64,000 bases of DNA. Source: Minisyncoccota bacterium. GTDB lineage: Bacteria > Patescibacteriota > Minisyncoccia > Phycocordibacterales > UBA9973. The position numbers and the translations under genes were made by a program. The stretch is taken from contig JBAZXO010000001.1 in the NCBI GenBank assembly GCA_041659785.1, positions 19,795 through 83,794 on the forward strand, in the 5' to 3' direction. This document shows, one piece after another, positions 2,864 through 45,409 of this stretch. How positions within the stretch are numbered: position 1 is the stretch's first letter; each line of letters starts with the position of its first letter. The notes beneath the pieces were generated by a model. It had not been told where the DNA came from and did no database searches. It saw nothing but the letters and a program-made list of their open reading frames with translations.

Positions 2864-3912
2864 TTATCACCTCCAGTTTTCAGGCCGAGCATTGTGTTGG
2901 GGTTACCCAAGACTAGGGTGCCCTGTACTTTGGCAAGTTCTTTCACTGCTTCCGTTTGGACGCGAGTATTTGCATCTGGTACGAGCTCAGTAATGTTGCC
3001 TTGTTCATCAGCTTTCGCGAGACCTGTTTTTACTAGACGTTTTCTTTCAGCCTCTGCAGCGAGTTCTGTTACTTTTGCAGCACCTTCTGCGGTGTGTACA
3101 GTTGCCTTAGCTTGCTGTTCTGCCTCTTTGACTGAGGTAACGGCTTTATTAAGCTCATGAGAGAATACAATCTGTTTAATGTATGCTTCACTAAGCTTAA
3201 TACCTCCACCTCCTTCTCTTTTCTCTATCTCTTTCCTGAATTCTGTCTCGAGCGTTGCATTGGTGGTGTTGAGGTTTCGTAAAGCTTTGGCTGGAGTTAC
3301 TTTGGAGAAGTCCTCACTACAGACTCGAATTGCTCGATCGCTCATGACTTGTCTGACTTTATCGGTTGTTCCGAAAACTCTTCGGAATACCATCATGTCT
3401 TCGATTTGCCAGCTTATGACCGGCACAACCTCAGCGACCATTGGGATGTTATAAGGATCCTTCTTCTCTTCATCAGAATCTGAAGAGTCTACCGGTCCGA
3501 ATTTAATTCGAATCGGAGGGAACATGCCGTCTGGCACTTTTTCCTTGTCGTCATTGCGAAAGATTTTTTCAGGGTCGGCGGGAAGCTCGTCCTGAAAGAG
3601 ATTCGCTGTTTCTTTATAAACTTTTGAAATTCCCGCCGGGGCAAAATATAGCCCTGGTTTTAAATTGCTTACGGGTTTACCAAAAATCTCGATCATGGCA
3701 ACTTCATCAGTTTTGATTGTGCCAAAACTGAATACTAGATAGGCCGTAACTAATGCTAACAGAACTGCTCCCGTATTGACACCGTATAGATTTATCCCAC
3801 TGAGCATCAGAACGACGCTAACGATGAATAAAGCAATTAAAAGAGAACCTATAAAGAATCTCATGGTATTTCCTTTCTTGCGCACGACGGCGCGAAAAGT
3901 GCTAAAGAGCAC
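2860..3912 (-). CDS. SPFH/band-7 (stomatin/prohibitin/HflK-like) membrane protein
   Basis: N-terminal TM helix. The C-terminal region (GIKLSEAYIKQIVFSHELNKAVTSVKEAEQQAKATVHTAEGAAKVTELAAEAERKR) is typical of the SPFH domain end. GC-rich relative to the genome. Confidence 0.55.
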   Translation of the reverse strand: MLFSTFRAVVRKKGNTMRFFIGSLLIALFIVSVVLMLSGINLYGVNTGAVLLALVTAYLVFSFGTIKTDEVAMIEIFGKPVSNLKPGLYFAPAGISKVYKETANLFQDELPADPEKIFRNDDKEKVPDGMFPPIRIKFGPVDSSDSDEEKKDPYNIPMVAEVVPVISWQIEDMMVFRRVFGTTDKVRQVMSDRAIRVCSEDFSKVTPAKALRNLNTTNATLETEFRKEIEKREGGGGIKLSEAYIKQIVFSHELNKAVTSVKEAEQQAKATVHTAEGAAKVTELAAEAERKRLVKTGLAKADEQGNITELVPDANTRVQTEAVKELAKVQGTLVLGNPNTMLGLKTGGDK

Positions 3913-5483: not shown

Positions 5484-5514
5484 AATTTCTAAAATATTCT
5501 AACATATTTTAGTG

Positions 5515-5586
5515 AGGCCTGGGGCGGAATCGAACCGCCGTATATTCCTTTTGCAGAGGAATGCCTTACCACTTGGCTACCAGGCC
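5515..5586 (-). tRNA. tRNA-Cys (anticodon GCA)
   Basis: Reverse complement GGCCTGGTAGCCAAGTGGTAAGGCATTCCTCTGCAAAAGGAATATACGGCGGTTCGATTCCGCCCCAGGCCT. Confidence 0.85.
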
Positions 5587-5608: not shown

Positions 5609-5668
5609 CCACCTAACCCTCTCCTTATGAAGGAGAGGGTGGCATCTTTAATAAGATGACGGGTGAGG
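5609..5668. repeat. GC-rich palindromic element, family C copy (ccctctcc-ttatgaa-ggagaggg stem plus gggtgagg tail), downstream of rbfA; possible terminator
   Basis: ccacctaaccctctccttatgaaggagagggtgg ... gacgggtgagg. Same architecture as the copies at 22171-22225, 24626-24664 and 25063-25099. Confidence 0.7.
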
Positions 5669-5678
5669 TGTATTAATC

Positions 5679-6011
5679 CTAACCATTTCGCAGCAGTTCG
5701 TCAATTTTTTGACGATTTTTTTCTCCTTTATCTATTTCTATATCAATAAACGGAATTACTTTTATTGGCATATTCTTTTTTAAGAAATCACGCAACTCAG
5801 CTCTTTTACGTTTTGCGAATTCTAATGCGTCATGTTCTTTTGCGGTAGGTAAGACTGTTATAAATATGGTTGCACGTTTTAGGTCAAGGGAGGCATTGGC
5901 ATACGTGACGGTTATTAGAGAAGTTCTATTGTTCTCACGTCCTAGAAACTGAGCAGAGAGCTCTTTTATTTGATTTGATACTTTTTCAATTCTGTTGCTG
6001 TTTTCAGACAT
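5679..6011 (-). CDS. rbfA: ribosome-binding factor A
   Basis: 110 aa. The ..LITVTYANASLDLKRATIFITVL.. core resembles the RbfA KH-like motif. Sits immediately downstream of infB. Confidence 0.75.
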   Translation of the reverse strand: MSENSNRIEKVSNQIKELSAQFLGRENNRTSLITVTYANASLDLKRATIFITVLPTAKEHDALEFAKRKRAELRDFLKKNMPIKVIPFIDIEIDKGEKNRQKIDELLRNG

Positions 6012-6012
6012 A

Positions 6013-7530
6013 TTACTTTTGTATTATTGAGAATGATTCGAGTACATCTCCAGCGACGACTTCTATTTTTGATTCAATCATCATTCCGAATTCAGATCCT
6101 TCTTCGACGGTGCTTGTTTTTATTTTATTTTTTTCTAAGTTAATGATTTTTGCACGACCAATTTCAAATTCTCTGCGCATTATTCTGACTGTACTGTTTA
6201 AGTTAATTTGTCCAACGGTAACTTTACCTCCCACTATTTGGCGTTCTTTTGTGCGGCTAAAAGCTCGAATAATCTTTGCGCTCCCTGTTGTCTCCATGGT
6301 TTCAATCTTGGGCCTTCTTATTTCCATTTGTTCTTCCAGCCATTCTGTCATTTTATAAATGATTTCAAAGTATGAAATAGTTATTCCTCTTTTTTCTGCT
6401 ATTTCTAGCGCGCTTTTATCTGTCTTTACATTAAATCCGATGACGAGCGCGTCTGCACCAGAAGATACTCCTTTTATATCAGATTCAGAAATGGGTCCGA
6501 TGCCTTTTACCACGATTTTAAATTCAGCATTATCGTTCTGTATTTTAGTGATTTCTTTTTCAATAGCCTCGATAGAACCTGAAACATCTGCTTTTAATAT
6601 TATAGGTATAATTTTTTTTTCTCCCCCTTGAGAAGGGGGAGTGCCCAAAGGGCGAGGGGGTAATTTTTCTTTCCAATTTTTCACACATTTTTCAGCATCG
6701 CTCTTTTTTTGAAAAGTTTTAAATTGTGCTCCAACTCTAGGCATTTTGTCGAAGCCCACAACACGCACCGGGGAAGAGAATGTAGCTTCATCGATTGATT
6801 TCCCCAGGAAATTTTCGATTATTCGAGTAGAGCACATAGTGTCTTCTACAACGACTGTCATACCTTTTTTAATTGAGCCATTTTTAATGACCAAGGTAGC
6901 CATTATTCCACGCCTAGAATCTAAATTTACTTCAATAACAAAACCAGAAGCGTCAGCGCTACTGTCACCGGTTAGATTTTCCATATCAGCTAGAATTAGA
7001 ATGAGTGATAGTAAATCATCCACGCCTGTGCCGACTTTTGCTGAAATTTCTGCAAATGGAACCTTGCCACCATAATTTTCTAGATAAATTTCATTTTCTG
7101 CTAATTCCATTTTTGTCTTTTCGACATTAGCACCTGGTTTATCTATTTTATTTATCGCGACGATATAAGGAATTTTAGATTCTGTAATAGTTTTCCAAGC
7201 TTCAATCGTCTGAGGCTTTACTCCATCTTCGGCTGACACTACTAAGATTGCGATATCAGCTATTTCTGCACCGCGTTCTCGCATTTTCGAGAAAGCTTCA
7301 TGCCCAGGTGTATCTAAGAAAGTTATCTTTCTATTTTGTCCATTTTCATCTTTATGAATAACTTCATAAGCAGAGATTCTCTGAGTTATTCCACCAGTTT
7401 CATTTTCAGTAATGTTTGTTTTTCTAATGTAGTCTAATAACGTAGACTTTCCATGGTCGATATGACCCATGACAGCCACTACTGGCGGATGTGCTATTAT
7501 TTGATTTTCTTTTTGTTTGTTTTTATCCAT
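6013..7530 (-). CDS. infB: translation initiation factor IF-2 (short form lacking N-terminal domains)
   Basis: G-domain [33 protein letters not shown], followed by the C-terminal beta-barrel domains. Confidence 0.9.
6621..6660. repeat. GC-rich palindromic element (family B) inserted in-frame inside infB; it encodes ..[18 protein letters not shown]..
   Basis: ctcccccttgagaagggggag is a perfect 7-bp-arm palindrome, followed by gcccaaagggc and gaggggg. Local GC far exceeds the rest of the gene. The reading frame is uninterrupted. Confidence 0.75.
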
Positions 7531-21225: not shown

Positions 21226-22470
21226 ATGAAGAAGAAAGTTGTTTTTGTCGGTATATCAGGAGGCGTAGATAGCGCTGTTTCAGCCGCAATGCTTAAAAAG
21301 CAGGGTTTTGACGTGGTGGGAGTTTTTATTAAAACTTGGCATCCAGATTTTCTAGAGTGTAATGAAGAAGATGAGCGTCGTGATGCTATGCGTGTGGCAG
21401 CTTTTTTAGATATTCCTTTTCTTACTTTTGATTTTGAAGATGTTTATAAAAAAGAAGTAGCTGACTATATGATAAGTGAATATAAGCTGGGGCGAACACC
21501 AAATCCAGATGTGATGTGCAACAAGGAAGTGAAGTTCGGCGCATTTCTTAAAAAAGCTCTTTCAATGGGTGCAGACTTTGTGGCGACTGGACATTATGCG
21601 GAGAATGGCGAGGTAAAAGTTGATTTTTTGAGTGGTGACGTTGCGAAGCAGGATATTCCTGAAAAAAAACAATTTTTACATCGCCAGCAAGACAAAACAA
21701 ATCATGCTTTTCTCAACCTGCCTGCTAAAGCAACGTCGGTATTCGAAAAACATAATTTGTTTTGTCTTAAAAAAGGTGTAGATTCATCCAAAGATCAAAG
21801 TTATTTTTTATGGACACTTAGACAAGAACAATTGAAGAAAATTTTATTTCCAATAGGGCATCTCAAAAAGACAGAAGTAAGAAAACTTGCTAAGAAATTT
21901 AGTCTTCCTGTAGCAGAGAAAAAGGATAGTCAAGGTATATGTTTTTTAGGAGCAGTAGATTTGAAAGATTTTTTGAAGCACTATATTAAAGTAAAAAAAG
22001 GAAAAGTTGAGAATGAAAAAGGGGAAGTAATTGGGCATCATGATGGGGCAGTTTTTTATACTTTAGGGGAAAGGCATGGTTTTACAATCACACAAAAAAC
22101 ACCGAAAGATGGTGCATATTACATAGTGGGTAAAGATATAAATAAAAATATTTTATATGTGTCACAAAATCCTCTCCCCAACCCCTCTCCATTAGTAACT
22201 AATGGAGAGGGGCGAAGGGGTGAGGCAATTAAAATTATTAATACAAATTGGATTTCAGAAGTTCCAGAAATTCACCCCGCCGATGGCGGGGCAAGTAAAA
22301 ACTATACTGCGCAGATTCGTTACCATAGTGAATTTTTGCCTTGCAAAATTAAAGTTCTTTCTAAGAATAAAGCTGAAATAATTTTTACAAAAACAATCTT
22401 GGTTGCTTCTGGCCAATCCATCGTGGTCTACGATGGTGATATTTGCTTGGGTGGTGGAGTAGTTGTATAA
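21226..22470 (+). CDS. mnmA: tRNA-specific 2-thiouridylase MnmA, carrying lineage-specific in-frame insertions
   Basis: VFVGISGGVDSAVSAAML PP-loop; ..ATGHYA..; KDQSYFLW. 414 aa against a typical ~360. Confidence 0.85.
   Translation: MKKKVVFVGISGGVDSAVSAAMLKKQGFDVVGVFIKTWHPDFLECNEEDERRDAMRVAAFLDIPFLTFDFEDVYKKEVADYMISEYKLGRTPNPDVMCNKEVKFGAFLKKALSMGADFVATGHYAENGEVKVDFLSGDVAKQDIPEKKQFLHRQQDKTNHAFLNLPAKATSVFEKHNLFCLKKGVDSSKDQSYFLWTLRQEQLKKILFPIGHLKKTEVRKLAKKFSLPVAEKKDSQGICFLGAVDLKDFLKHYIKVKKGKVENEKGEVIGHHDGAVFYTLGERHGFTITQKTPKDGAYYIVGKDINKNILYVSQNPLPNPSPLVTNGEGRRGEAIKIINTNWISEVPEIHPADGGASKNYTAQIRYHSEFLPCKIKVLSKNKAEIIFTKTILVASGQSIVVYDGDICLGGGVVV
22171..22295. repeat. two different GC palindromic elements inserted in-frame in mnmA: family C at 22171-22225 and family A at 22275-22295
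   Basis: cccctctccattagt-a-actaatggagagggg is a perfect 15-bp inverted repeat, followed by gaaggggtgagg. Then ccccgccgatggcggggcaag. They encode NPSPLVTNGEGRRGEA and HPADGGASK. Confidence 0.8.
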
Positions 22471-22948: not shown

Positions 22949-24596
22949 AATTAGATCAAAATTTCTAAAATTTTTTGAAAATCGAGGACATAAAATAATT
23001 CCTTCTTCTTCGTTGATACCCAATGACCCTTCAGTGCTTTTCACAACAGCTGGAATGCAGCAGTTTAAACCTTATTATACCAATCCACAAAATGCTGATA
23101 AAGATTTTGGTAATAGAAATATTACAACAGCTCAGAAATGTATTCGTACCGGTGACATAGAAGAAGTCGGTGATGCTACGCATCTGACTTTTTTTGAAAT
23201 GCTTGGGAACTTTTCTTTTGGTGGCTATGGTAGACGTGAGGCTATTACTTATGCATATGATTTTATTGTTAAAGAATTAGGTTTGGAAATTTCTTATGTA
23301 ACTGTTTATAAAGGTGAGGGGATAGTTCCCAAGGATGATGAATCGCGCGCTGTTTGGGAAGAGTTAGGAGTGAAGGATATTCGTTTAGATGGTCATGATG
23401 TTTTTTGGGGGCCGACAGGAGACTCTGGGCCATGCGGACCAACAACAGAGATTTATTGCAAAAATGCAGATGGGGTTGATGTAGAAATTTGGAATATTGT
23501 TTTTAATGAATATTTTTGTGACAATTCTCGTGAAAAATTAGATAAAGGACAAGCTAATCTAAAAAAATTAGATGTTTTAGGCATAGATACAGGTATGGGG
23601 TTAGAACGCTTGCTTGCAACTGTTCAGAAAAGGAAAAATGTTTACGAAACAGATGTTTTTAATAATGAACAAACAAAAGAAGAAAGAATAGTTGCAGATC
23701 ATATAAAAGCGTCCCTTTTCATGATTTCAGATGGAGTAGTTCCATCAAATACTGGAGCTGGATATGTATTACGAAGATTAATAAGACGAGCAGTTAGATT
23801 TTCTAAACAGCCTCTGTCACAAGAAATAGAAAAAATAAAAAAAATTTACGAAGGAGTTTATGTTCTTGATGATAAGGGAGAAATAGAAAATGAAGAAAAA
23901 AAGTTTAGACATACGCTTGAGCATGGATTAAAAGAATTTGAAAAGGGGATAGATCCATTCGTTTTGGCTACTACTTATGGTTTTCCAATAGAACTTACTC
24001 TTGAGTTAGCAAAAGAAAAAGGACAGACGATTGACCTAGAAGAATTTCATAAAAAGATGGCAGAACATCAGAAATTATCGCAGACTTCATCCGCCGGTAT
24101 GTTTAAGGGTGGGCTTGCAAATCATAATGAAAAAACAATCAGACTTCACACTGCACACCATTTATTGCTTGCTGGACTTCAGGCAGTTGTAGATAAAAAT
24201 ATAAAACAACGAGGAAGTAACATCACCGAAGAGCGTTTACGTATGGATTTCTTGTGTGATCATAAATTAACTGATGAAGAAAAACAAAAAGTGGAAATCT
24301 GGGTCAATGAAAAAATTTCTGAAGGTTTAAATGTTGTTCGCAAAGAGATGCCCTTGGTTGAGGCAGAAAAGCTCGGCGCAGAAATGGAATTTGGTGCTAA
24401 ATATCCAGATATCGTATCTTTATATTTTATAGAAGAACCCGCCAAGGACGGGTCAGGTAAAAATGTTAATGTAATATCTAAAGAATTTTGTGGTGGACCA
24501 CATGTAAATAACACTAAAGAATTGGGTAAATTTAAAATTCAAAAAGAAGAAGCTGTAGCTGCTGGCATTAGACGCATCAAGGCAGTACTGGAATAA
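22935..24596 (+). CDS. alaS: alanyl-tRNA synthetase, compact form (catalytic + editing HxxxH/CxxxH motifs; no long C-terminal extension)
   Basis: FTTAGMQQFKPYY, HLTFFEMLGNFSFGGY, GPCGPTTEIY, editing-site HTAHHLL and CGGPHV. Only 553 aa. Confidence 0.8.
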   Translation: MESNEIRSKFLKFFENRGHKIIPSSSLIPNDPSVLFTTAGMQQFKPYYTNPQNADKDFGNRNITTAQKCIRTGDIEEVGDATHLTFFEMLGNFSFGGYGRREAITYAYDFIVKELGLEISYVTVYKGEGIVPKDDESRAVWEELGVKDIRLDGHDVFWGPTGDSGPCGPTTEIYCKNADGVDVEIWNIVFNEYFCDNSREKLDKGQANLKKLDVLGIDTGMGLERLLATVQKRKNVYETDVFNNEQTKEERIVADHIKASLFMISDGVVPSNTGAGYVLRRLIRRAVRFSKQPLSQEIEKIKKIYEGVYVLDDKGEIENEEKKFRHTLEHGLKEFEKGIDPFVLATTYGFPIELTLELAKEKGQTIDLEEFHKKMAEHQKLSQTSSAGMFKGGLANHNEKTIRLHTAHHLLLAGLQAVVDKNIKQRGSNITEERLRMDFLCDHKLTDEEKQKVEIWVNEKISEGLNVVRKEMPLVEAEKLGAEMEFGAKYPDIVSLYFIEEPAKDGSGKNVNVISKEFCGGPHVNNTKELGKFKIQKEEAVAAGIRRIKAVLE

Positions 24597-24625
24597 ATTT
24601 GGAAGATAAATTATTAAATTAAAAA

Positions 24626-25099
24626 CCTCACCCCTGCCCCCTCTCCAGAATACTGGCGAGGGGTAAATGCAACATACTAAGTGTGCTATATTTTAAGTAA
24701 TGGTTATATTAAAAACAATAATTAAAGCAAGATATTTAAGGAAAGAAGAAACTAAAACAGAACAAATACTTTGGGAGAAACTTAGAAATAATAATCTTGG
24801 TATGAAATGGAGAAGACAGCATCCTTTGGATATGTTTATCCTTGATTTTTACGCACCTAAAATAAAACTCGCGATAGAATTAGACGGTTCTATTCATAAT
24901 ATAAAAGAAAATAAAGAATATGATAAAGATAGAACAGATTATTTGAAATCTAAAGATATACAAGTTCTGAGATTTTGGAATTCTGAAGTAGAAAAAGATT
25001 TAGAAAACGTTTTAAATAAAATAAAAGAAAAAACAAAAGAACTTTTATAAGTTTGTATTTTTCCCCTCTCTGGTACTCCGGAGAGGGGAAGGGGTGAGG
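24626..25099. mobile_element. candidate miniature cassette: a DUF559 gene bracketed by inverted copies of the family C GC palindromic element, with 10-bp terminal inverted repeats CCTCACCCCT / AGGGGTGAGG
   Basis: Left element 24626-24664 (cctcacccctgccccctctcc..gcgaggggt). Right element 25063-25099 (cccctctctggtactccggagaggggaaggggtgagg). The two ends are exact reverse complements. Confidence 0.5.
24700..25050 (+). CDS. DUF559 (Vsr-like PD-(D/E)xK endonuclease-fold) domain protein
   Basis: ARYLRKEETKTEQILWEKLRNNNLGMKWRRQHPLDMFILDFYAPKIKLAIELDGSIH..VLRFWNSEV matches the DUF559 consensus. Confidence 0.7.
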   Translation: MVILKTIIKARYLRKEETKTEQILWEKLRNNNLGMKWRRQHPLDMFILDFYAPKIKLAIELDGSIHNIKENKEYDKDRTDYLKSKDIQVLRFWNSEVEKDLENVLNKIKEKTKELL

Positions 25100-25145
25100 A
25101 GTATTTGGCTCAAATAGTTATCCCCATTTCACTTTCCAAAACTTC

Positions 25146-25161
25146 TGGGGGGGGGTTATAA
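25146..25161. promoter_or_regulatory. G9 homopolymer abutting a TATAAT -10 box upstream of a surface-protein gene (candidate slipped-strand phase-variation site)
   Basis: ctggggggggg ttataat at 25146-25161; ATG at 25197. Confidence 0.5.
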
Positions 25162-25196
25162 TTAAAAGAGTAATTTATTAATTTAATTTTTTACAT

Positions 25197-26282
25197 ATGA
25201 ATAAAAAAATATTAAGTGTTTTAGTTTTTTCTTTGTTCGTTTTAGGTGCCACAAAAGCTTTCGCTTCTTTAACCTTCAGCTCAGCTGCTATTACAGGAGA
25301 TGCTGCTTCTACGATAGATGTAGGTGCAGGGAATGCTTTGTCATTACAGACTACGAACAACGGAGCGATAACCACAGGAACAGGTTTAGTTACATTAGGA
25401 GGAAGTTTAAATGCTGCAGGTATTATTACTTTACCCATGACTACAAGTTCAACGACTGGTGTCATCTATAAAGGAGCAACACCTTTTATTCATAATTTTA
25501 ATTTTGGAAATAATGGAACAGTTACAACTGATGGTAAAAATACCTTCGTTGGAATAAATGCTGGTAATTTTACAATGGGGAGTACTGCGACATTAACATA
25601 TGAAAGCAGTAGTAATGTTGGTATAGGTCAAGATGTCTTAACAATTAATACTAAGGGATATGGTAATACTGCAACAGGTTGGTCTGATTTAAAACTTAAC
25701 ACTACTGGTAGTTGGAACACTGCATATGGGGTAACGGCACTTTATAATAATACAACGGGTAGTAATAATGTAGCAATTGGTGGAGAGGCATTAGGTTTTA
25801 ACACCATAGGTGGAGAAAACACTGCAGTTGGTGTTTATGCTCTTGATTTCAATACTACAGGAAGTCTTAATACCGCTAATGGTATGTACTCTCTTAGCTC
25901 TAATAGCACTGGTTCTCGCAACGTTGCATTGGGATACGCCGCGGGAGCGTACGAATTAGGGTCTAGTTCATTTTACGTAGATGCTTATGACCGAGCAAAC
26001 ACTGCAGGGGATAAAGCAGGGGCTTTGCTATACGGAACATTTAATGCGACGCCAAGTCTTCAGACTTTAACTATCAATGGAAAGATTACTGCAAGTAATG
26101 CTATGAATAAAGGCACAGTAGCTCTCTCTGCTGGCACAGCCACAGTCACAGTTGTCTCTGGTGCTGTCTGCGTAGTTAGCGAAACGACAACTGCTACAAA
26201 TGGAGTTAAGGGTGCAGTCGTCGGCACAACGCTTACAATCACGGGTACTGGTACAGATACTATTGCTTATATTTGTTTGTAA
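25197..26282 (+). CDS. secreted G/T/N-rich repeat surface protein (paralog A)
   Basis: Signal peptide MNKKILSVLVFSLFVLGATKAFA. Degenerate NTxxG..AL repeats. The N-terminal 55 aa and the promoter are duplicated at 36875. Confidence 0.5.
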   Translation: MNKKILSVLVFSLFVLGATKAFASLTFSSAAITGDAASTIDVGAGNALSLQTTNNGAITTGTGLVTLGGSLNAAGIITLPMTTSSTTGVIYKGATPFIHNFNFGNNGTVTTDGKNTFVGINAGNFTMGSTATLTYESSSNVGIGQDVLTINTKGYGNTATGWSDLKLNTTGSWNTAYGVTALYNNTTGSNNVAIGGEALGFNTIGGENTAVGVYALDFNTTGSLNTANGMYSLSSNSTGSRNVALGYAAGAYELGSSSFYVDAYDRANTAGDKAGALLYGTFNATPSLQTLTINGKITASNAMNKGTVALSAGTATVTVVSGAVCVVSETTTATNGVKGAVVGTTLTITGTGTDTIAYICL

Positions 26283-42424: not shown

Positions 42425-42429
42425 TGTTT

Positions 42430-42450
42430 CCCGGACACCAGGTGTCCGGG
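42430..42450. repeat. perfect palindrome cccggacacc-a-ggtgtccggg, followed by tggggaaaaattt and ATG 42464
   Basis: Read directly. Same layout (GC hairpin, then G-run, A-run, ATG) as 1494-1522. Confidence 0.7.
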
Positions 42451-42463
42451 TGGGGAAAAATTT

Positions 42464-43972: not shown

Positions 43973-45409
43973 TTAAATCTTAGAAATCTTTTGCCCCATG
44001 TTTGTATCCTTAACTTCATAACCCAGAGAATTTATTTTTTCTCGAAGCTCATCGGACTTTTTAAAATCTTTATCCTTGCGAGCTTGTTCGCGTTCTTCGG
44101 CTAGCTTTTTTACTTCTTCAGGAATTACGTCTTCCTTTAAGTGTTCGAAGCCTAACCCTAACACTTTATCGAAGTCTAAAATTGTAGCTTTCTTGTCGGC
44201 GTCTGACATGTTTTCATCTTTAAAAACATCCCACAATAATGCTAAAGCCCTAGGGGTGTCTAGGTCGTCTTCTATGTATTCTTTAAACTTATTTTGGTAT
44301 TCCTTATGTACATGGCCCACTTGCCCCGTCCTTGGCGGGGACTCATTTGCCCCCGCCTCAGGCGGGACAAGAAGCCCTAAATAAAGGCCATAAAGGCGTT
44401 TTAAGGCTGTTTCAGCGCCCTCGAGTGCTTCCCATACAAAGTTGACTTTAGTACGATAGCTAGCCATTAAAAGCCAAAAACGATAGGTTATAGGGTTTAT
44501 GTTTTTTTCAATTAAACTTTCCAATCTTAAAAAATTATTTGCTGATTTAGACATTTTCTCGTTACCTGTATCAACAAATTCACTATGCATCCAGAATTTA
44601 ACAAAAGGCTTTTTACCAGTAGCGCATTCTGATTGAGCTATTTCATTTGTGTGATGTGTAGGTATAAGATCAATGCCCCCTGTGTGAATATCAAATTGTT
44701 CACCAAGAAATTTTAGACCCATAGCAGAACATTCAATGTGCCATCCCGGAAAACCAATTCCGAAAGGGGATTCAAAACCAATTTTATTATCAGTCTTCCA
44801 CAATGCGAAATCTTCAGGATTTATTTTTTCAGAATTTTCTGTTACCCTAGCTCCTTCTTTGTTCCAGTCCCTTTTACCACTCCAAAGTGCTCCATAGTCA
44901 GGCATTTTAGAAACATTGAAATATATTCCATCACTTGTTTTATATGTGTATCCTTTTTCTGTTAGTTTTTGGATTAATTCAATGTCTTCTTTAACATAAT
45001 CGCTTGCAAAATATAAACCTGAAGGCATTTCGATATTAAGGGCTTGTAAATCTTTTTTAAAACTTTCAGTATAAAATTCTGCAAGCTCACGCATGTTTTT
45101 TAGCGTTAATTCTTTTCCTTCTCGCAAAAGTCCCTTGGTCATTTTATCTTCACCAGAATCAGCATCACTTGAAAGATGCCCGATGTCAGTGATGTTCATG
45201 ACTTGCTTTACTATAAATCCTTCATATTGAAGAGTGCGATGTACCAAGTCGGCAAAAAAGAAAGAACGCAAATTACCTATATGGGTATAGTTATAAACTG
45301 TTGGGCCACAGGTATACATTCGTACCTCCTTCGGATCTATGGGGGTAAAAATGTCTTTTTCTTTAGTTAGAGTGTTGTAAAATTTTAAAGCCATTTTATT
45401 TAAATTCAC
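43973..45409 (-). CDS. cysS: cysteinyl-tRNA synthetase carrying an in-frame double GC-palindrome insertion
   Basis: MYTCGPTVYNYTHIGNLR (HIGH), KMSKS, zinc-binding Cys/His residues. The insertion encodes ..VPPEAGANESPPRTGQVGH. Confidence 0.9.
   Translation of the reverse strand: MNLNKMALKFYNTLTKEKDIFTPIDPKEVRMYTCGPTVYNYTHIGNLRSFFFADLVHRTLQYEGFIVKQVMNITDIGHLSSDADSGEDKMTKGLLREGKELTLKNMRELAEFYTESFKKDLQALNIEMPSGLYFASDYVKEDIELIQKLTEKGYTYKTSDGIYFNVSKMPDYGALWSGKRDWNKEGARVTENSEKINPEDFALWKTDNKIGFESPFGIGFPGWHIECSAMGLKFLGEQFDIHTGGIDLIPTHHTNEIAQSECATGKKPFVKFWMHSEFVDTGNEKMSKSANNFLRLESLIEKNINPITYRFWLLMASYRTKVNFVWEALEGAETALKRLYGLYLGLLVPPEAGANESPPRTGQVGHVHKEYQNKFKEYIEDDLDTPRALALLWDVFKDENMSDADKKATILDFDKVLGLGFEHLKEDVIPEEVKKLAEEREQARKDKDFKKSDELREKINSLGYEVKDTNMGQKISKI
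44320..44371. repeat. composite of two adjacent family A palindromes inside cysS
   Basis: cttgccccgtccttggcgggg + actcatttg + cccccgcctcaggcgggacaag. The outer ends cttgcccc.../...gggacaag are themselves inverted. Confidence 0.75.

Follow-up and report, generated by a model that had tools for sequence, protein, structure and literature searches.

The window analysed here is a stretch of 64,000 nucleotides (64 kb) within a 318-kb contig (JBAZXO010000001.1) of a Minisyncoccota bacterium; its base composition is AT-rich, at about 36% GC. Between alaS and a surface-protein gene (25197-26282) it carries a free-standing unit of 474 bp (24626-25099), made up of a 38-nt end, a spacer, an open reading frame (ORF) of 116 amino acids that encodes a nuclease of the DUF559 family, and an inverted 37-nt end. 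The nuclease ORF is the only one inside the unit, which is referred to below as the cassette. This account concerns the relation between the gene and the repeats that frame it, in the window and in other genomes. The parts of the cassette are these:

24626-24663, minus strand: left end, 38 nt. As read on the plus strand, it is a C-tail (CCTCACCCC, 24626-24634), TGC and a hairpin (24638-24663); as read on the minus strand, it is a triplex-motif repeat of the mismatch type, CCCCTCGCC...GGAGAGGGG-GCA-GGGGTGAGG
24664-24699, plus strand: spacer of 36 nt from the left end to the start codon, AT-rich, containing ATGCAA...TATATT
24700-25050, plus strand: gene for a DUF559/YcjD-like nuclease of 116 amino acids (Pfam PF04480, NCBIfam, PDB, Foldseek)
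25063-25099, plus strand: right end, 37 nt, a hairpin (25063-25088), AA and a G-tail (GGGGTGAGG, 25091-25099)

The tips of the two ends, CCTCACCCCT (24626-24635) and AGGGGTGAGG (25090-25099), are exact reverse complements. An earlier reading of this DNA, made from the sequence alone, had claimed these perfect 10-bp repeats, and complementarity was found to run on through the whole arms: 93% over 15 nt (24626-24640 with 25085-25099) and 80% over 30 nt (24638-24667 with 25059-25088). The cassette is therefore bounded by terminal inverted repeats (TIRs) with arms of 37-38 nt, about 80% complementary, and a perfect 10-nt tip. The exact 10-mer of the tip occurs three times in the window, against 0.02 expected, a count reached by none of 100 shuffled sequences. 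Each end is a GC hairpin with an outward tail. The left hairpin, CCCCTCTCCAG-AATA-CTGGCGAGGGG, has one stem mismatch and a predicted DNA folding free energy (dG) of -9.7 kcal/mol (z -3.6), and the right hairpin, CCCCTCTCTGG-TACT-CCGGAGAGGGG, also with one mismatch, has a dG of -11.1 kcal/mol (z -3.8). The composite pattern of hairpin plus tail had two exact matches in the window, with 0.00 expected. The right end begins 12 nt past the DUF559 stop codon and has its triplex-motif repeat on the plus strand.

Several simpler assignments were set aside. A consensus scan for terminators and promoters gave no terminator-like site (T-run) at either end, and a simple terminator role was dropped. ATGCAA...TATATT in the left spacer could be a promoter of the cassette's own; a sigma-70 consensus scan gave no passing match in that spacer. 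An Rfam scan of 24400-25300 returned a single sub-threshold ylbH match (20 against 50 bits), which was rejected as noise. Also dropped were an integron attC cassette, for which the window holds neither an integrase nor an array, and a restriction-modification remnant, for which it holds no adjacent methylase.

Both ends share one layout: a C-rich arm, a loop, a G-rich arm, a linker of 2-3 nt and a third G block mirroring the G-arm (GGAGAGGGG-AA-GGGGTGAGG). The three blocks are CCCCTCTCT / GGAGAGGGG / GGGGTGAGG at the right end and CCCCTCGC(C) / GGAGAGGGG / GGGGTGAGG at the left end, as its minus strand reads. Judged by this layout, the ends belong, as a variant, to a class of triplex-motif repeats known over time as BoxC (in Escherichia coli), potential intrastrand triplex (PIT) elements and TMECO (Holder et al. 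2015, PMC4666352). The membership in this described class of the palindromes that had earlier been grouped as "family C" had gone unrecognised. TMECO follows the consensus CCCTCNCCC-N3-6-GGGNGAGGG-N3-GGGNGAGGG; strain MG1655 has 23 copies, five as inverted pairs of two subtypes, and a stem mismatch, CCCTCGCCC/GGGAGAGGG, is present in 13 of the 23 and is the commonest solo form (PMC4666352). Triplex formation was demonstrated for E. coli sequences by circular dichroism and nuclear magnetic resonance, and TMECO loci are unusually unstable (PMC4666352). No transposase or integrase has ever been found near the motifs, and the flanking genes have no common function; the same paper calls the origin and mechanism of the repeats unanswered and mentions neither DUF559 nor ycjD (PMC4666352). 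Published tests of PIT elements, as cited in that paper, gave neither promoter nor terminator activity (PMC4666352). For the window repeats the predicted folds are those of the Watson-Crick hairpins, which alone are computable. Earlier work on BoxC and PIT elements was reportedly that of Bachellier in the 1990s and of Hoyne and Maher in 2000.

The likeness to TMECO lies in the three blocks (the right end reads CCCCTCTCT-GGTACTCC-GGAGAGGGG-AA-GGGGTGAGG), in a stem mismatch that recurs in both (CCCTCGCCC/GGGAGAGGG in E. coli, CCCCTCGCC/GGAGAGGGG in the window) and in a dispersed, multi-copy occurrence, both solo and in inverted pairs that come in two subtypes. The literal TMECO consensus was not matched, the window copies having a shifted register (blocks of 4+5, not 3+1+...), longer stems and loop, and a second loop of 2 nt or up to 21 nt, where TMECO has N3. 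Because register and loop lengths differ, the window copies are a variant of the class and not TMECO itself. Furthermore, TMECO copies are reported as always intergenic, whereas one window copy lies inside a coding sequence, and published work on TMECO names no associated gene, whereas the window repeats frame DUF559, as TMECO no. 9 likewise lies at ycjD.

Recurrence of the repeat-framed gene

Eighty genomic loci encoding homologues of the window protein were fetched (numbered L001 and so on where they need to be told apart). The 33 closest homologues, 58-83% identical, are all from Patescibacteria. A left-type end was found upstream in 28 of the 33 and a right-type end downstream in 23, in constant orientation with the tails outward. 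Counting the window, both ends are present at 21 loci, with 432-560 bp from TIR to TIR, and in the homologous cassettes the spacer from left end to gene measures 16-70 nt; inspection of the flanks of other DUF559 copies, which the sequence-only reading had proposed as a check, therefore bore it out. The density of canonical hairpins was 6.6 per kb within 150 nt of the gene; farther out in these loci, at 400-3000 nt, it was 0.14 per kb, and it was down to 0.011 per kb across 458 kb of alaS-centred DNA that came from related bacteria of the candidate phyla radiation (CPR) and had been fetched regardless of the gene. For generic GC-rich hairpins the densities were 5.7 per kb near the gene and 0.2 per kb away from it.

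Tailed repeats that stand head to head (adjacent, 60-3000 nt apart) enclose DUF559 in 29 of 32 pairs, two of which had scored negative solely by coordinate tolerance; the remaining three pairs enclose no recognisable cargo gene. Because of these 29 pairs, and because repeat type follows protein clade, the nuclease looks like a specific partner of the repeats. The suggestion that it was cargo of a mobile element was not upheld, no pair enclosing another identified cargo. The link first proposed between the solo mini-elements of the window and a protein-coding partner did hold.

Across species the mean pairwise identity was 0.83 for the left end and 0.78 for the right end, against 0.47 for the inner spacer and 0.50 for the 36 nt outside; the ends are therefore constrained or continually homogenised. 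Synonymous sites of the DUF559 gene differ by 29-80%. Target-site duplications (TSDs) were searched for at the 21 complete cassettes and were absent from 20, including the window, where their presence around 24626 and 25099 had been put forward as something to look for. The single TSD-like case, L035 (about 905-1350 in a metagenome-assembled genome (MAG) of Margulisiibacteriota), has a direct repeat of 9-11 bp, (GG)AAGTGGTAA, on both sides of the cassette, and this repeat includes the stop codon of the upstream gene. No near-identical multi-copy bursts were seen among copies within a genome.

Hairpin-plus-tail repeats also flank more distant homologues (39-58% identity). These were found in Anaerolineae, Bacteroidia, Ignavibacteriae, Omnitrophota, Margulisiibacteriota, Chthonomonadales, Balneolaceae, Alpha-, Beta- and Gammaproteobacteria, Desulfobacterota, Methylomirabilota and Leptospiraceae. 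Arm sequence varies with the protein clade and the tail changes in step, mirroring the arm: one clade spanning three phyla has CCCCCCTTT..AAAGGGGGG..GGGGGAT, another has CCTCCCCC..GGGGGAGG-AA-GGAGGGGG, and Balneolaceae have CCTCCTC... By a strict test, for which a hairpin accompanied by a mirror third block had to lie no more than 160 nt away, 52 of the 80 loci carry the repeat; hairpins near the gene have such a block in 74 of 139 cases, and distant hairpins in 19 of 150. The arrangement varies, some clades having the tails inward or complete double-tailed elements on both sides. On a Synechocystis B12 plasmid the gene has CCTCACCCCTAGCCCCCTCTCC-TAAA-GGCGAGGGGG upstream and CCCCTCTCC-GGT-GGGAGAGGGG-CCG-GGAGTGAGA downstream; repeat variants of their own also flank the gene in Deinococcus proteolyticus, Pseudanabaena, Picosynechococcus PCC 7002, Neisseria gonorrhoeae, Azospirillum and Klebsiella, in complete replicons. 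Because complete replicons of cultured organisms show the pattern, it is not a MAG artefact. The association of YcjD-like DUF559 genes with triplex-motif repeats is in our view established as specific, oriented, ancient and cross-phylum.

The protein itself is a clear member of DUF559 (PF04480, E-value 1.9e-31, 108.6 bits against a cut-off of 20.6), with residues 9-111 aligned to profile positions 6-107 of 109; the gene between the inverted elements was thus correctly named at the outset and encodes the full-length domain. Invariant among 26 homologues are D49, E60, H66, D75, R78, R91, N94 and E96, with D62 nearly so. A profile of these 26 homologues matched, in the PDB, 3HRL (N. gonorrhoeae DUF559, E 1e-22) and 3R3P (catalytic domain of I-Bth0305I, E 0.0024, residues 32-110). 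An AlphaFold2 model (predicted local distance difference test 80, predicted template modelling (TM) score 0.69) submitted to Foldseek retrieved 3HRL (E 1e-5, TM 0.66/0.80) and 3R3P (E 6e-5, TM 0.59-0.69), then PvuRts1I, and then Vsr (1CW0, E 0.02). The predicted fold is that of a Vsr-like PD-(D/E)XK nuclease. Against the model for Vsr proper (TIGR00632) the score was 19.3 bits, below the cut-off of 97.85, which leaves the Joint Genome Institute label "very-short-patch-repair endonuclease" unjustified. The score against the YcjD equivalog (PRK09767), 77.6 bits against 218, marks a relative rather than an equivalog. Identity is 42% to E. coli YcjD over the full length and 32% to 3HRL; YcjD (PRK09767) and N. 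gonorrhoeae NGO0050 (PDB 3HRL) have the same length and family as the window protein, and their genes are flanked by repeats of the same class. The ratio of nonsynonymous to synonymous change (dN/dS) of the DUF559 gene, 0.06-0.20, indicates purifying selection and suggests that an active enzyme is being maintained.

The catalytic domain of I-Bth0305I, a homing endonuclease of the group-I-intron kind, is the nearest characterised relative of solved structure, and the window protein is homologous to it; an additional N-terminal DNA-binding region was not found in the window protein, two short N-terminal helices preceding its core. Four of the 80 homologues (L037, L039, L041 and L042; 41-50% identity) are nested in probable inteins of an N6/N4 DNA methylase, recognised by the motifs TPxHPV ... 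VYNLRVAEDNSY ... VHNC; the Hint and Intein_splicing matches are weak, and Hint is below the Pfam thresholds. The copy in L041 (2087-4105) reads TPHHPV ... VYNLRVAEDNSY ... VHNC. No hairpin flanks L037, L041 or L042, a single one lies 52 nt downstream of L039, and none of the four passed the strict mirror-block test. These intein-nested relatives suggest that members of this clade can act as modules of homing endonucleases. As a separate observation, the N-terminal parts of the intein-bearing ORFs (L041, and also L037, L039 and L042) translate GC-rich repeats (SPSPNLGKGLGDG).

A second DUF559 paralogue, P0110, 72% identical, lies on the contig of the window. PADLOC gave only weak domain-level matches, to a methyl-directed REase and DpdF (E about 1e-5), and assignment to a defence system was set aside. 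Viral contigs yielded 8 homologues, all distant (29-43% identity); the clade is therefore not typically phage-borne. The window protein had no match to Y1_Tnp and is not a HUH Y1 transposase, and the cassette encodes no DDE, HUH, serine or tyrosine recombinase.

Insertion sites and solo copies

In 15 metagenomic relatives (AlaS 69-87% identical) the gene order is mnmA - orf161 - alaS - ftsA-like gene; in the closest relative, L081, a homologue of the surface-protein gene takes the place after alaS. The spacer downstream of alaS in the 15 relatives (20-70 nt, AT-rich) contains neither DUF559 nor a palindrome. An empty site, which the sequence-only reading had suggested looking for, was thus found, and no relative had both palindromes without the gene. 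Since the palindromes are absent from the gene-less relatives, the cassette is an insertion in the lineage of the window, downstream of alaS. The sequence GGGGGTTATAATTAA, promoter-proximal to the next gene, is common to the window and L081. In L101 alone a 16-nt GC-rich remnant, GGGCGGCCGGGTGAGG (G-arm / CCG / tail-like, about 2570-2600), lies in the cassette-less alaS spacer, and a repeat of this class may have visited that spacer independently. Beyond the cassette (25147-25162), a G9 homopolymer stands directly upstream of a TATAAT box ahead of the surface-protein gene, with G5 at the same position in L081; this tract may be a slipped-strand phase-variation switch for the surface protein.

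The proteins of the window, L001 and L002 are mutual closest relatives, 81-82% identical, and lie in different contexts: downstream of alaS in the window, between clpP and tig in L001, and between recA and efp in L002. The recA-efp site holds the cassette in 12 species (L002, L004-L006, L008, L010, L012-L014, L016, L026 and L029), in either orientation and with identical outer boundaries (...GGTGAGG/TTGATT..., the slash marking the boundary, by the efp promoter). Two orientations are what recombination between inverted ends would produce. A survey of predicted inversions at inverted repeats placed DUF559 among the most enriched targets, with an odds ratio of 14.3, and left this uncommented (PMC9881135).

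Nine relatives (elongation factor P 85-91% identical) were compared at this site. In six, recA is followed by efp without a protein-coding gene between; three of these empty spacers are short (8, 18 and 75 nt) and three measure 132-142 nt and contain a hairpin element. A seventh relative, judged from gene calls only, has a 41-nt gap, and the remaining two have a GIY-YIG gene (74 amino acids, L182) and a D12 methyltransferase behind a left-type end (L184). The recA-efp spacer is a hotspot in Nomurabacteria, shrinking to 8-18 nt in L179 and L185. The element of about 130 nt is conserved (L178 1598-1737, L180 2369-2500, L183 2359-2500) and has long terminal inverted repeats of its own (AAAAACAGCTGAAACAT...ATGTTTCAGCTGTTTTT in L180) with the core GGGGTTTCGAGGCTGACGAGC..GAGAACTTC.GGATTTTT; Rfam returned only spurious miRNA-precursor matches for it in these three loci. 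Downstream of efp, a tailed solo repeat, CCTCACCCC..CCCTCTCCTT.TTAAG.AGAGGG, stands at 3143-3176 in both L184 and L185, and its shared position suggests an orthologous solo copy kept across two Nomurabacteria species. A further site, between a metallo-beta-lactamase (MBL) hydrolase gene and rpsA, holds the DUF559 gene in about nine species.

The window contains four copies of the repeat, two of them solo. Both solo copies had been reported from the sequence, and both are real:

22171-22225, no strand assigned: solo double-tailed copy (C-tail, C-arm, loop, G-arm, G-tail) inside mnmA
5609-5668, no strand assigned: solo variant copy between an rbfA-like ORF (5679-6011, minus strand) and tRNA-Cys (5514-5586)

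The copy in mnmA is a complete palindrome (dG -21.1, z -7.4) and is read through in frame as ...PLPNPSPLVTNGEGRRGEA...; its site, a segment of MnmA that is hypervariable and prone to insertions, is different in each of the 12 aligned relatives. The copy near rbfA consists of a hairpin, CCCTCTCC-TTATGAA-GGAGAGGG, a 21-nt second loop with a small hairpin of its own, and then GGGTGAGG. The long-second-loop variant, GGAGAGGGG-TGGATGCGAAGCAGAC-GGGGTGAGG, was also found in L007, L008, L017, L018, L021 and L030.

Other GC-rich palindromes are read in frame in mnmA (22275-22292), in infB (6630-6661), in the trigger-factor ORF of L001 and in mnmA of L081, L084 and L098. The mnmA palindrome CCCCGCCGATGGCGGGG accounts for about seven extra MnmA residues (HPADGGA) that are missing in 12 relatives, and the variable MnmA loops of relatives contain other peptides derived from GC palindromes, SPCEGGVPEGRGG and SPSPLIRGRLGGGG. 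Two more GC-rich palindromes of the window, GCCCCGTCCTTGGCGGGGAC followed by GCCCCCGCCTCAGGCGGGAC (44310-44379) and CCCGGACACCAGGTGTCCGGG (42426-42455), are unrelated to the type that flanks DUF559. The tolerance of palindromes in frame in essential genes (here mnmA, and a different palindrome in infB) resembles that of Rickettsia palindromic elements. Those are AT-rich and, at about 100-150 bp, longer than the window palindromes, and to our knowledge they have no associated nuclease.

The ycjD gene of E. coli K-12 runs at its 3' end into a hairpin, CCCTCTCCC..GCGAGGGG, and about 170 nt downstream comes TMECO no. 9 (1,351,239-1,351,204), oriented as expected. The gene thus has repeats downstream only, with a different palindrome upstream, where the window has both ends. 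That upstream palindrome is an unrelated perfect 16-bp inverted repeat, CACCTCATTCTGACAA-N11-TTGTCAGAATGAGGTG. In the same K-12 stretch (L169, NC_000913.3 1351200-1351830) a second copy of roughly the final 50 nt of ycjD lies downstream (GGAGACGGTGCTGGAGAATATTC...CTGAACCG twice), between the gene-end hairpin and TMECO no. 9. The gene is present in 3378 of 5426 complete E. coli genomes, and matches to the 36-nt TMECO consensus number 1-32 per genome, with a median of 19. In an evenly spaced sample, drawn with a chimeric query, genomes with ycjD (n=37) have 12-30 TMECO copies, median 19, and chromosomes without it (n=22) have 1-18, median 5, eleven of them having three or fewer (Mann-Whitney p = 6e-9). 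A difference of this kind would be expected if the repeat population depended on the gene.

Interpretation and alternatives

On balance, and with clear reservations, the locus is best read as an instance of a widespread partnership between a nuclease gene and a repeat, in which the nuclease acts on its cognate repeats. The anatomy, recurrence, specificity, end conservation, presence/absence polymorphism, fold and purifying selection described above are observations. Under this partnership the nuclease would recognise its repeat either as a palindromic duplex, through a dimer, or as an extruded hairpin or triplex with the conserved stem mismatch, and would nick or cleave it. Host repair of the break, templated by another copy, would maintain and spread the repeats; were the template a gene-bearing copy, the gene would be copied into the repeat site, as in homing. 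The inverted ends of 37-38 nt would permit inversion of the gene segment. More speculatively, the stem mismatch and the co-varying third block might mean that a folded single-strand form is recognised, beyond the duplex palindrome.

A number of points weigh against this interpretation. That the nuclease acts on the repeats, and how it does so, is something we infer. A lone PD-(D/E)XK nuclease cannot join DNA, which leaves the dispersal of solo copies, for example into mnmA, unexplained, and the homology arms available for homing would be only about 20-38 nt. Gene copies are few, one to three per genome, with paralogues within a genome 72-76% identical, and many stand at syntenic sites across species; few, diverged copies at syntenic sites fit a domesticated or regulatory role as well as they fit mobility. 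About a third of the 80 loci have no repeat by the strict test, and most of the loci come from MAGs and were chosen through the gene. The junctions of the alaS insertion are not base-precise, the short spacer having diverged between relatives. In E. coli, O157:H7 retains 14 TMECO copies without ycjD, and the searches catch near-identical ycjD DNA only, leaving out other DUF559 paralogues. The correlation there is also confounded, because the distribution of ycjD follows phylogroup: the gene is confined to phylogroups A, B1 and C together with ST69 and ST182, and replaces the eefRABCD operon (PMC12817139).

Four other explanations were weighed, none of which matches the partnership on cross-phylum specificity and co-variation. 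The strongest of them, though we think it unlikely, is a pure homing gene that parasitises pre-existing repeats spread by other means, the repeats serving only as a multi-copy target and as homology arms. Such a gene would enter solo double-tailed elements through cleavage and recombinational repair, with no benefit to the repeats. The cassette can be described as a double-tailed solo element of the mnmA type with "G-arm, gene, C-arm" in its loop; its gene-side arms carry the conserved mismatch (GGCGAGGGG / CCCCTCGCC), while the solo hairpin in mnmA is perfect, a difference that could shield the donor. Kinship to I-Bth0305I in structure, the intein-nested relatives and the absence of TSDs would all suit such a gene. 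Homing into a pre-existing palindrome was one of the original suggestions for this locus, and its enzymatic side gains from that kinship and those relatives; the pre-existing palindrome, however, was not found, neither in the alaS spacer of relatives nor at empty recA-efp sites. No orthologous site was found at which one genome has a solo element and another has the cassette. Moreover, repeat subtype follows protein clade and repeats are more than ten times denser in DUF559-bearing DNA than in unbiased related DNA, which suggests repeats that depend on the protein, and the mismatch type is the commonest among E. coli solo copies (13 of 23) and hence not specific to copies that flank the gene.

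We regard it as improbable that the protein is a resident housekeeping or repair nuclease in an immobile unit, with the hairpins acting as operators, insulators or mRNA-stabilising or terminating structures. Its persistence in synteny (recA-efp in 12 species, MBL hydrolase-rpsA in about nine), strong purifying selection and copy number of one to three fit that picture, and a dimeric autoregulator could bind palindromic flanks. But presence and absence differ among close relatives at two loci, the closest proteins sit in different contexts, and identical repeats stand alone at a distance from the gene and within coding sequence. T-run terminators were not found, the PIT promoter and terminator tests cited above were negative, and a simple operator leaves conservation of the third block unexplained.

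An autonomous mini-transposon, in which the nuclease is a transposase cutting the 37-38-nt TIRs and the solo elements are its miniature inverted-repeat transposable elements (MITEs), seems very improbable. Long TIRs with subterminal hairpins, a constant length of 432-560 bp, several contexts, solo derivatives and the 9-11-bp direct repeat at L035 would be expected of such an element, and the first suggestion of a minimal mobile cassette with TIRs survives to the extent that a discrete unit, bounded by the same ends, is found across many genomes and contexts. A transposon of the classical TIR type is nevertheless disfavoured: 20 of 21 cassettes lack a TSD, no strand-transfer recombinase is encoded, and copies are few and diverged (72-76% identical within a genome), with no near-identical bursts. 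We know of no strand-transfer chemistry in a 116-aa Vsr-like nuclease, and TnsA, a transposon nuclease of the PD-(D/E)XK kind, requires TnsB.

Least likely of all, and hardly credible in our view, is a passive association, with repeats moved by an unrelated factor or by replication errors and gathering in permissive hotspots or by composite capture: the recA-efp hotspot does host a GIY-YIG gene, a D12 methyltransferase and a MITE-like hairpin element, and in L184 a left-type end precedes the methyltransferase and not DUF559, but the two ends keep a fixed orientation and spacing with respect to the gene, DUF559 lies inside 29 of 32 pairs, the pattern is reproduced with different repeats in at least ten phyla and in complete genomes, and the otherwise mobile intein-borne DUF559 copies lack the repeats.

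Known systems and significance

One close parallel is the REP/REPIN-RAYT system, reportedly described by Nunvar in 2010, Bertels and Rainey in 2011 and Ton-Hoang in 2012. There too a low-copy nuclease gene is flanked by inverted copies of a palindromic repeat dispersed through the genome, synteny persists over the long term, repeat subtype follows protein clade, and repeats are apparently depleted where the gene is absent, as in the E. coli sample here. The differences are chiefly of chemistry. RAYT is a HUH Y1 transposase, whereas the single-strand cut-and-join chemistry of that enzyme is unavailable to a 116-aa Vsr-like PD-(D/E)XK protein, and where REPINs have a GTAG/CGTC tag, the window repeats have the third mirror block. 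The DUF559 cassette is, in contrast, polymorphic among close relatives and spread over many phyla.

A second parallel is offered by the EDxHD, or Vsr-like, homing endonucleases, said to have been described by Dassa in 2009 and Taylor in 2011. Endonucleases of the I-Bth0305I type are alike in catalytic fold, in their selfish-element context and in the intein-nested homologues of the window protein. They differ in that the window protein has a short helical N-terminus and no separate DNA-binding domains, and its gene is free-standing and framed by repeats and does not split a host gene by way of an intron or intein. On the best-supported comparison, the partnership would behave like RAYT-REPIN at the level of populations and would resemble free-standing homing endonuclease genes in its chemistry.

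Both the gene family and the class of repeats are already described, but no paper linking DUF559 to these repeats was found in the searchable literature, subscription-only papers not being covered. E. coli has been known for about 30 years to carry BoxC/PIT/TMECO repeats, sequences that fold into triplexes in vitro and are linked to local genome instability, no mobility function having been found near them (PMC4666352). DUF559, which includes E. coli YcjD, is a large cross-phylum family with a solved structure and no assigned function. CPR genomes contain unexplained GC-rich palindromes, even in essential genes.

Should the link between gene and repeats prove to be only one of regulation or of passive association, the locus is an architectural curiosity of the genome. 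As a tentative proposition, held with less than even confidence, YcjD-like DUF559 proteins may be the missing enzymatic partner of the BoxC/PIT/triplex-motif repeats, whose range extends from E. coli and cyanobacteria to CPR bacteria, the two together forming a minimal selfish or domesticated replicator of about 0.45-0.55 kb, a PD-(D/E)XK analogue of RAYT-REPIN. The partnership hypothesis is directly testable in E. coli, and a 116-aa nuclease with a structured recognition element of about 40 nt could be of practical interest. If true, the partnership would be a second, mechanistically different persistent replicator of the REPIN-RAYT kind; it would explain the instability of TMECO loci and would give a function to the very large DUF559 family.

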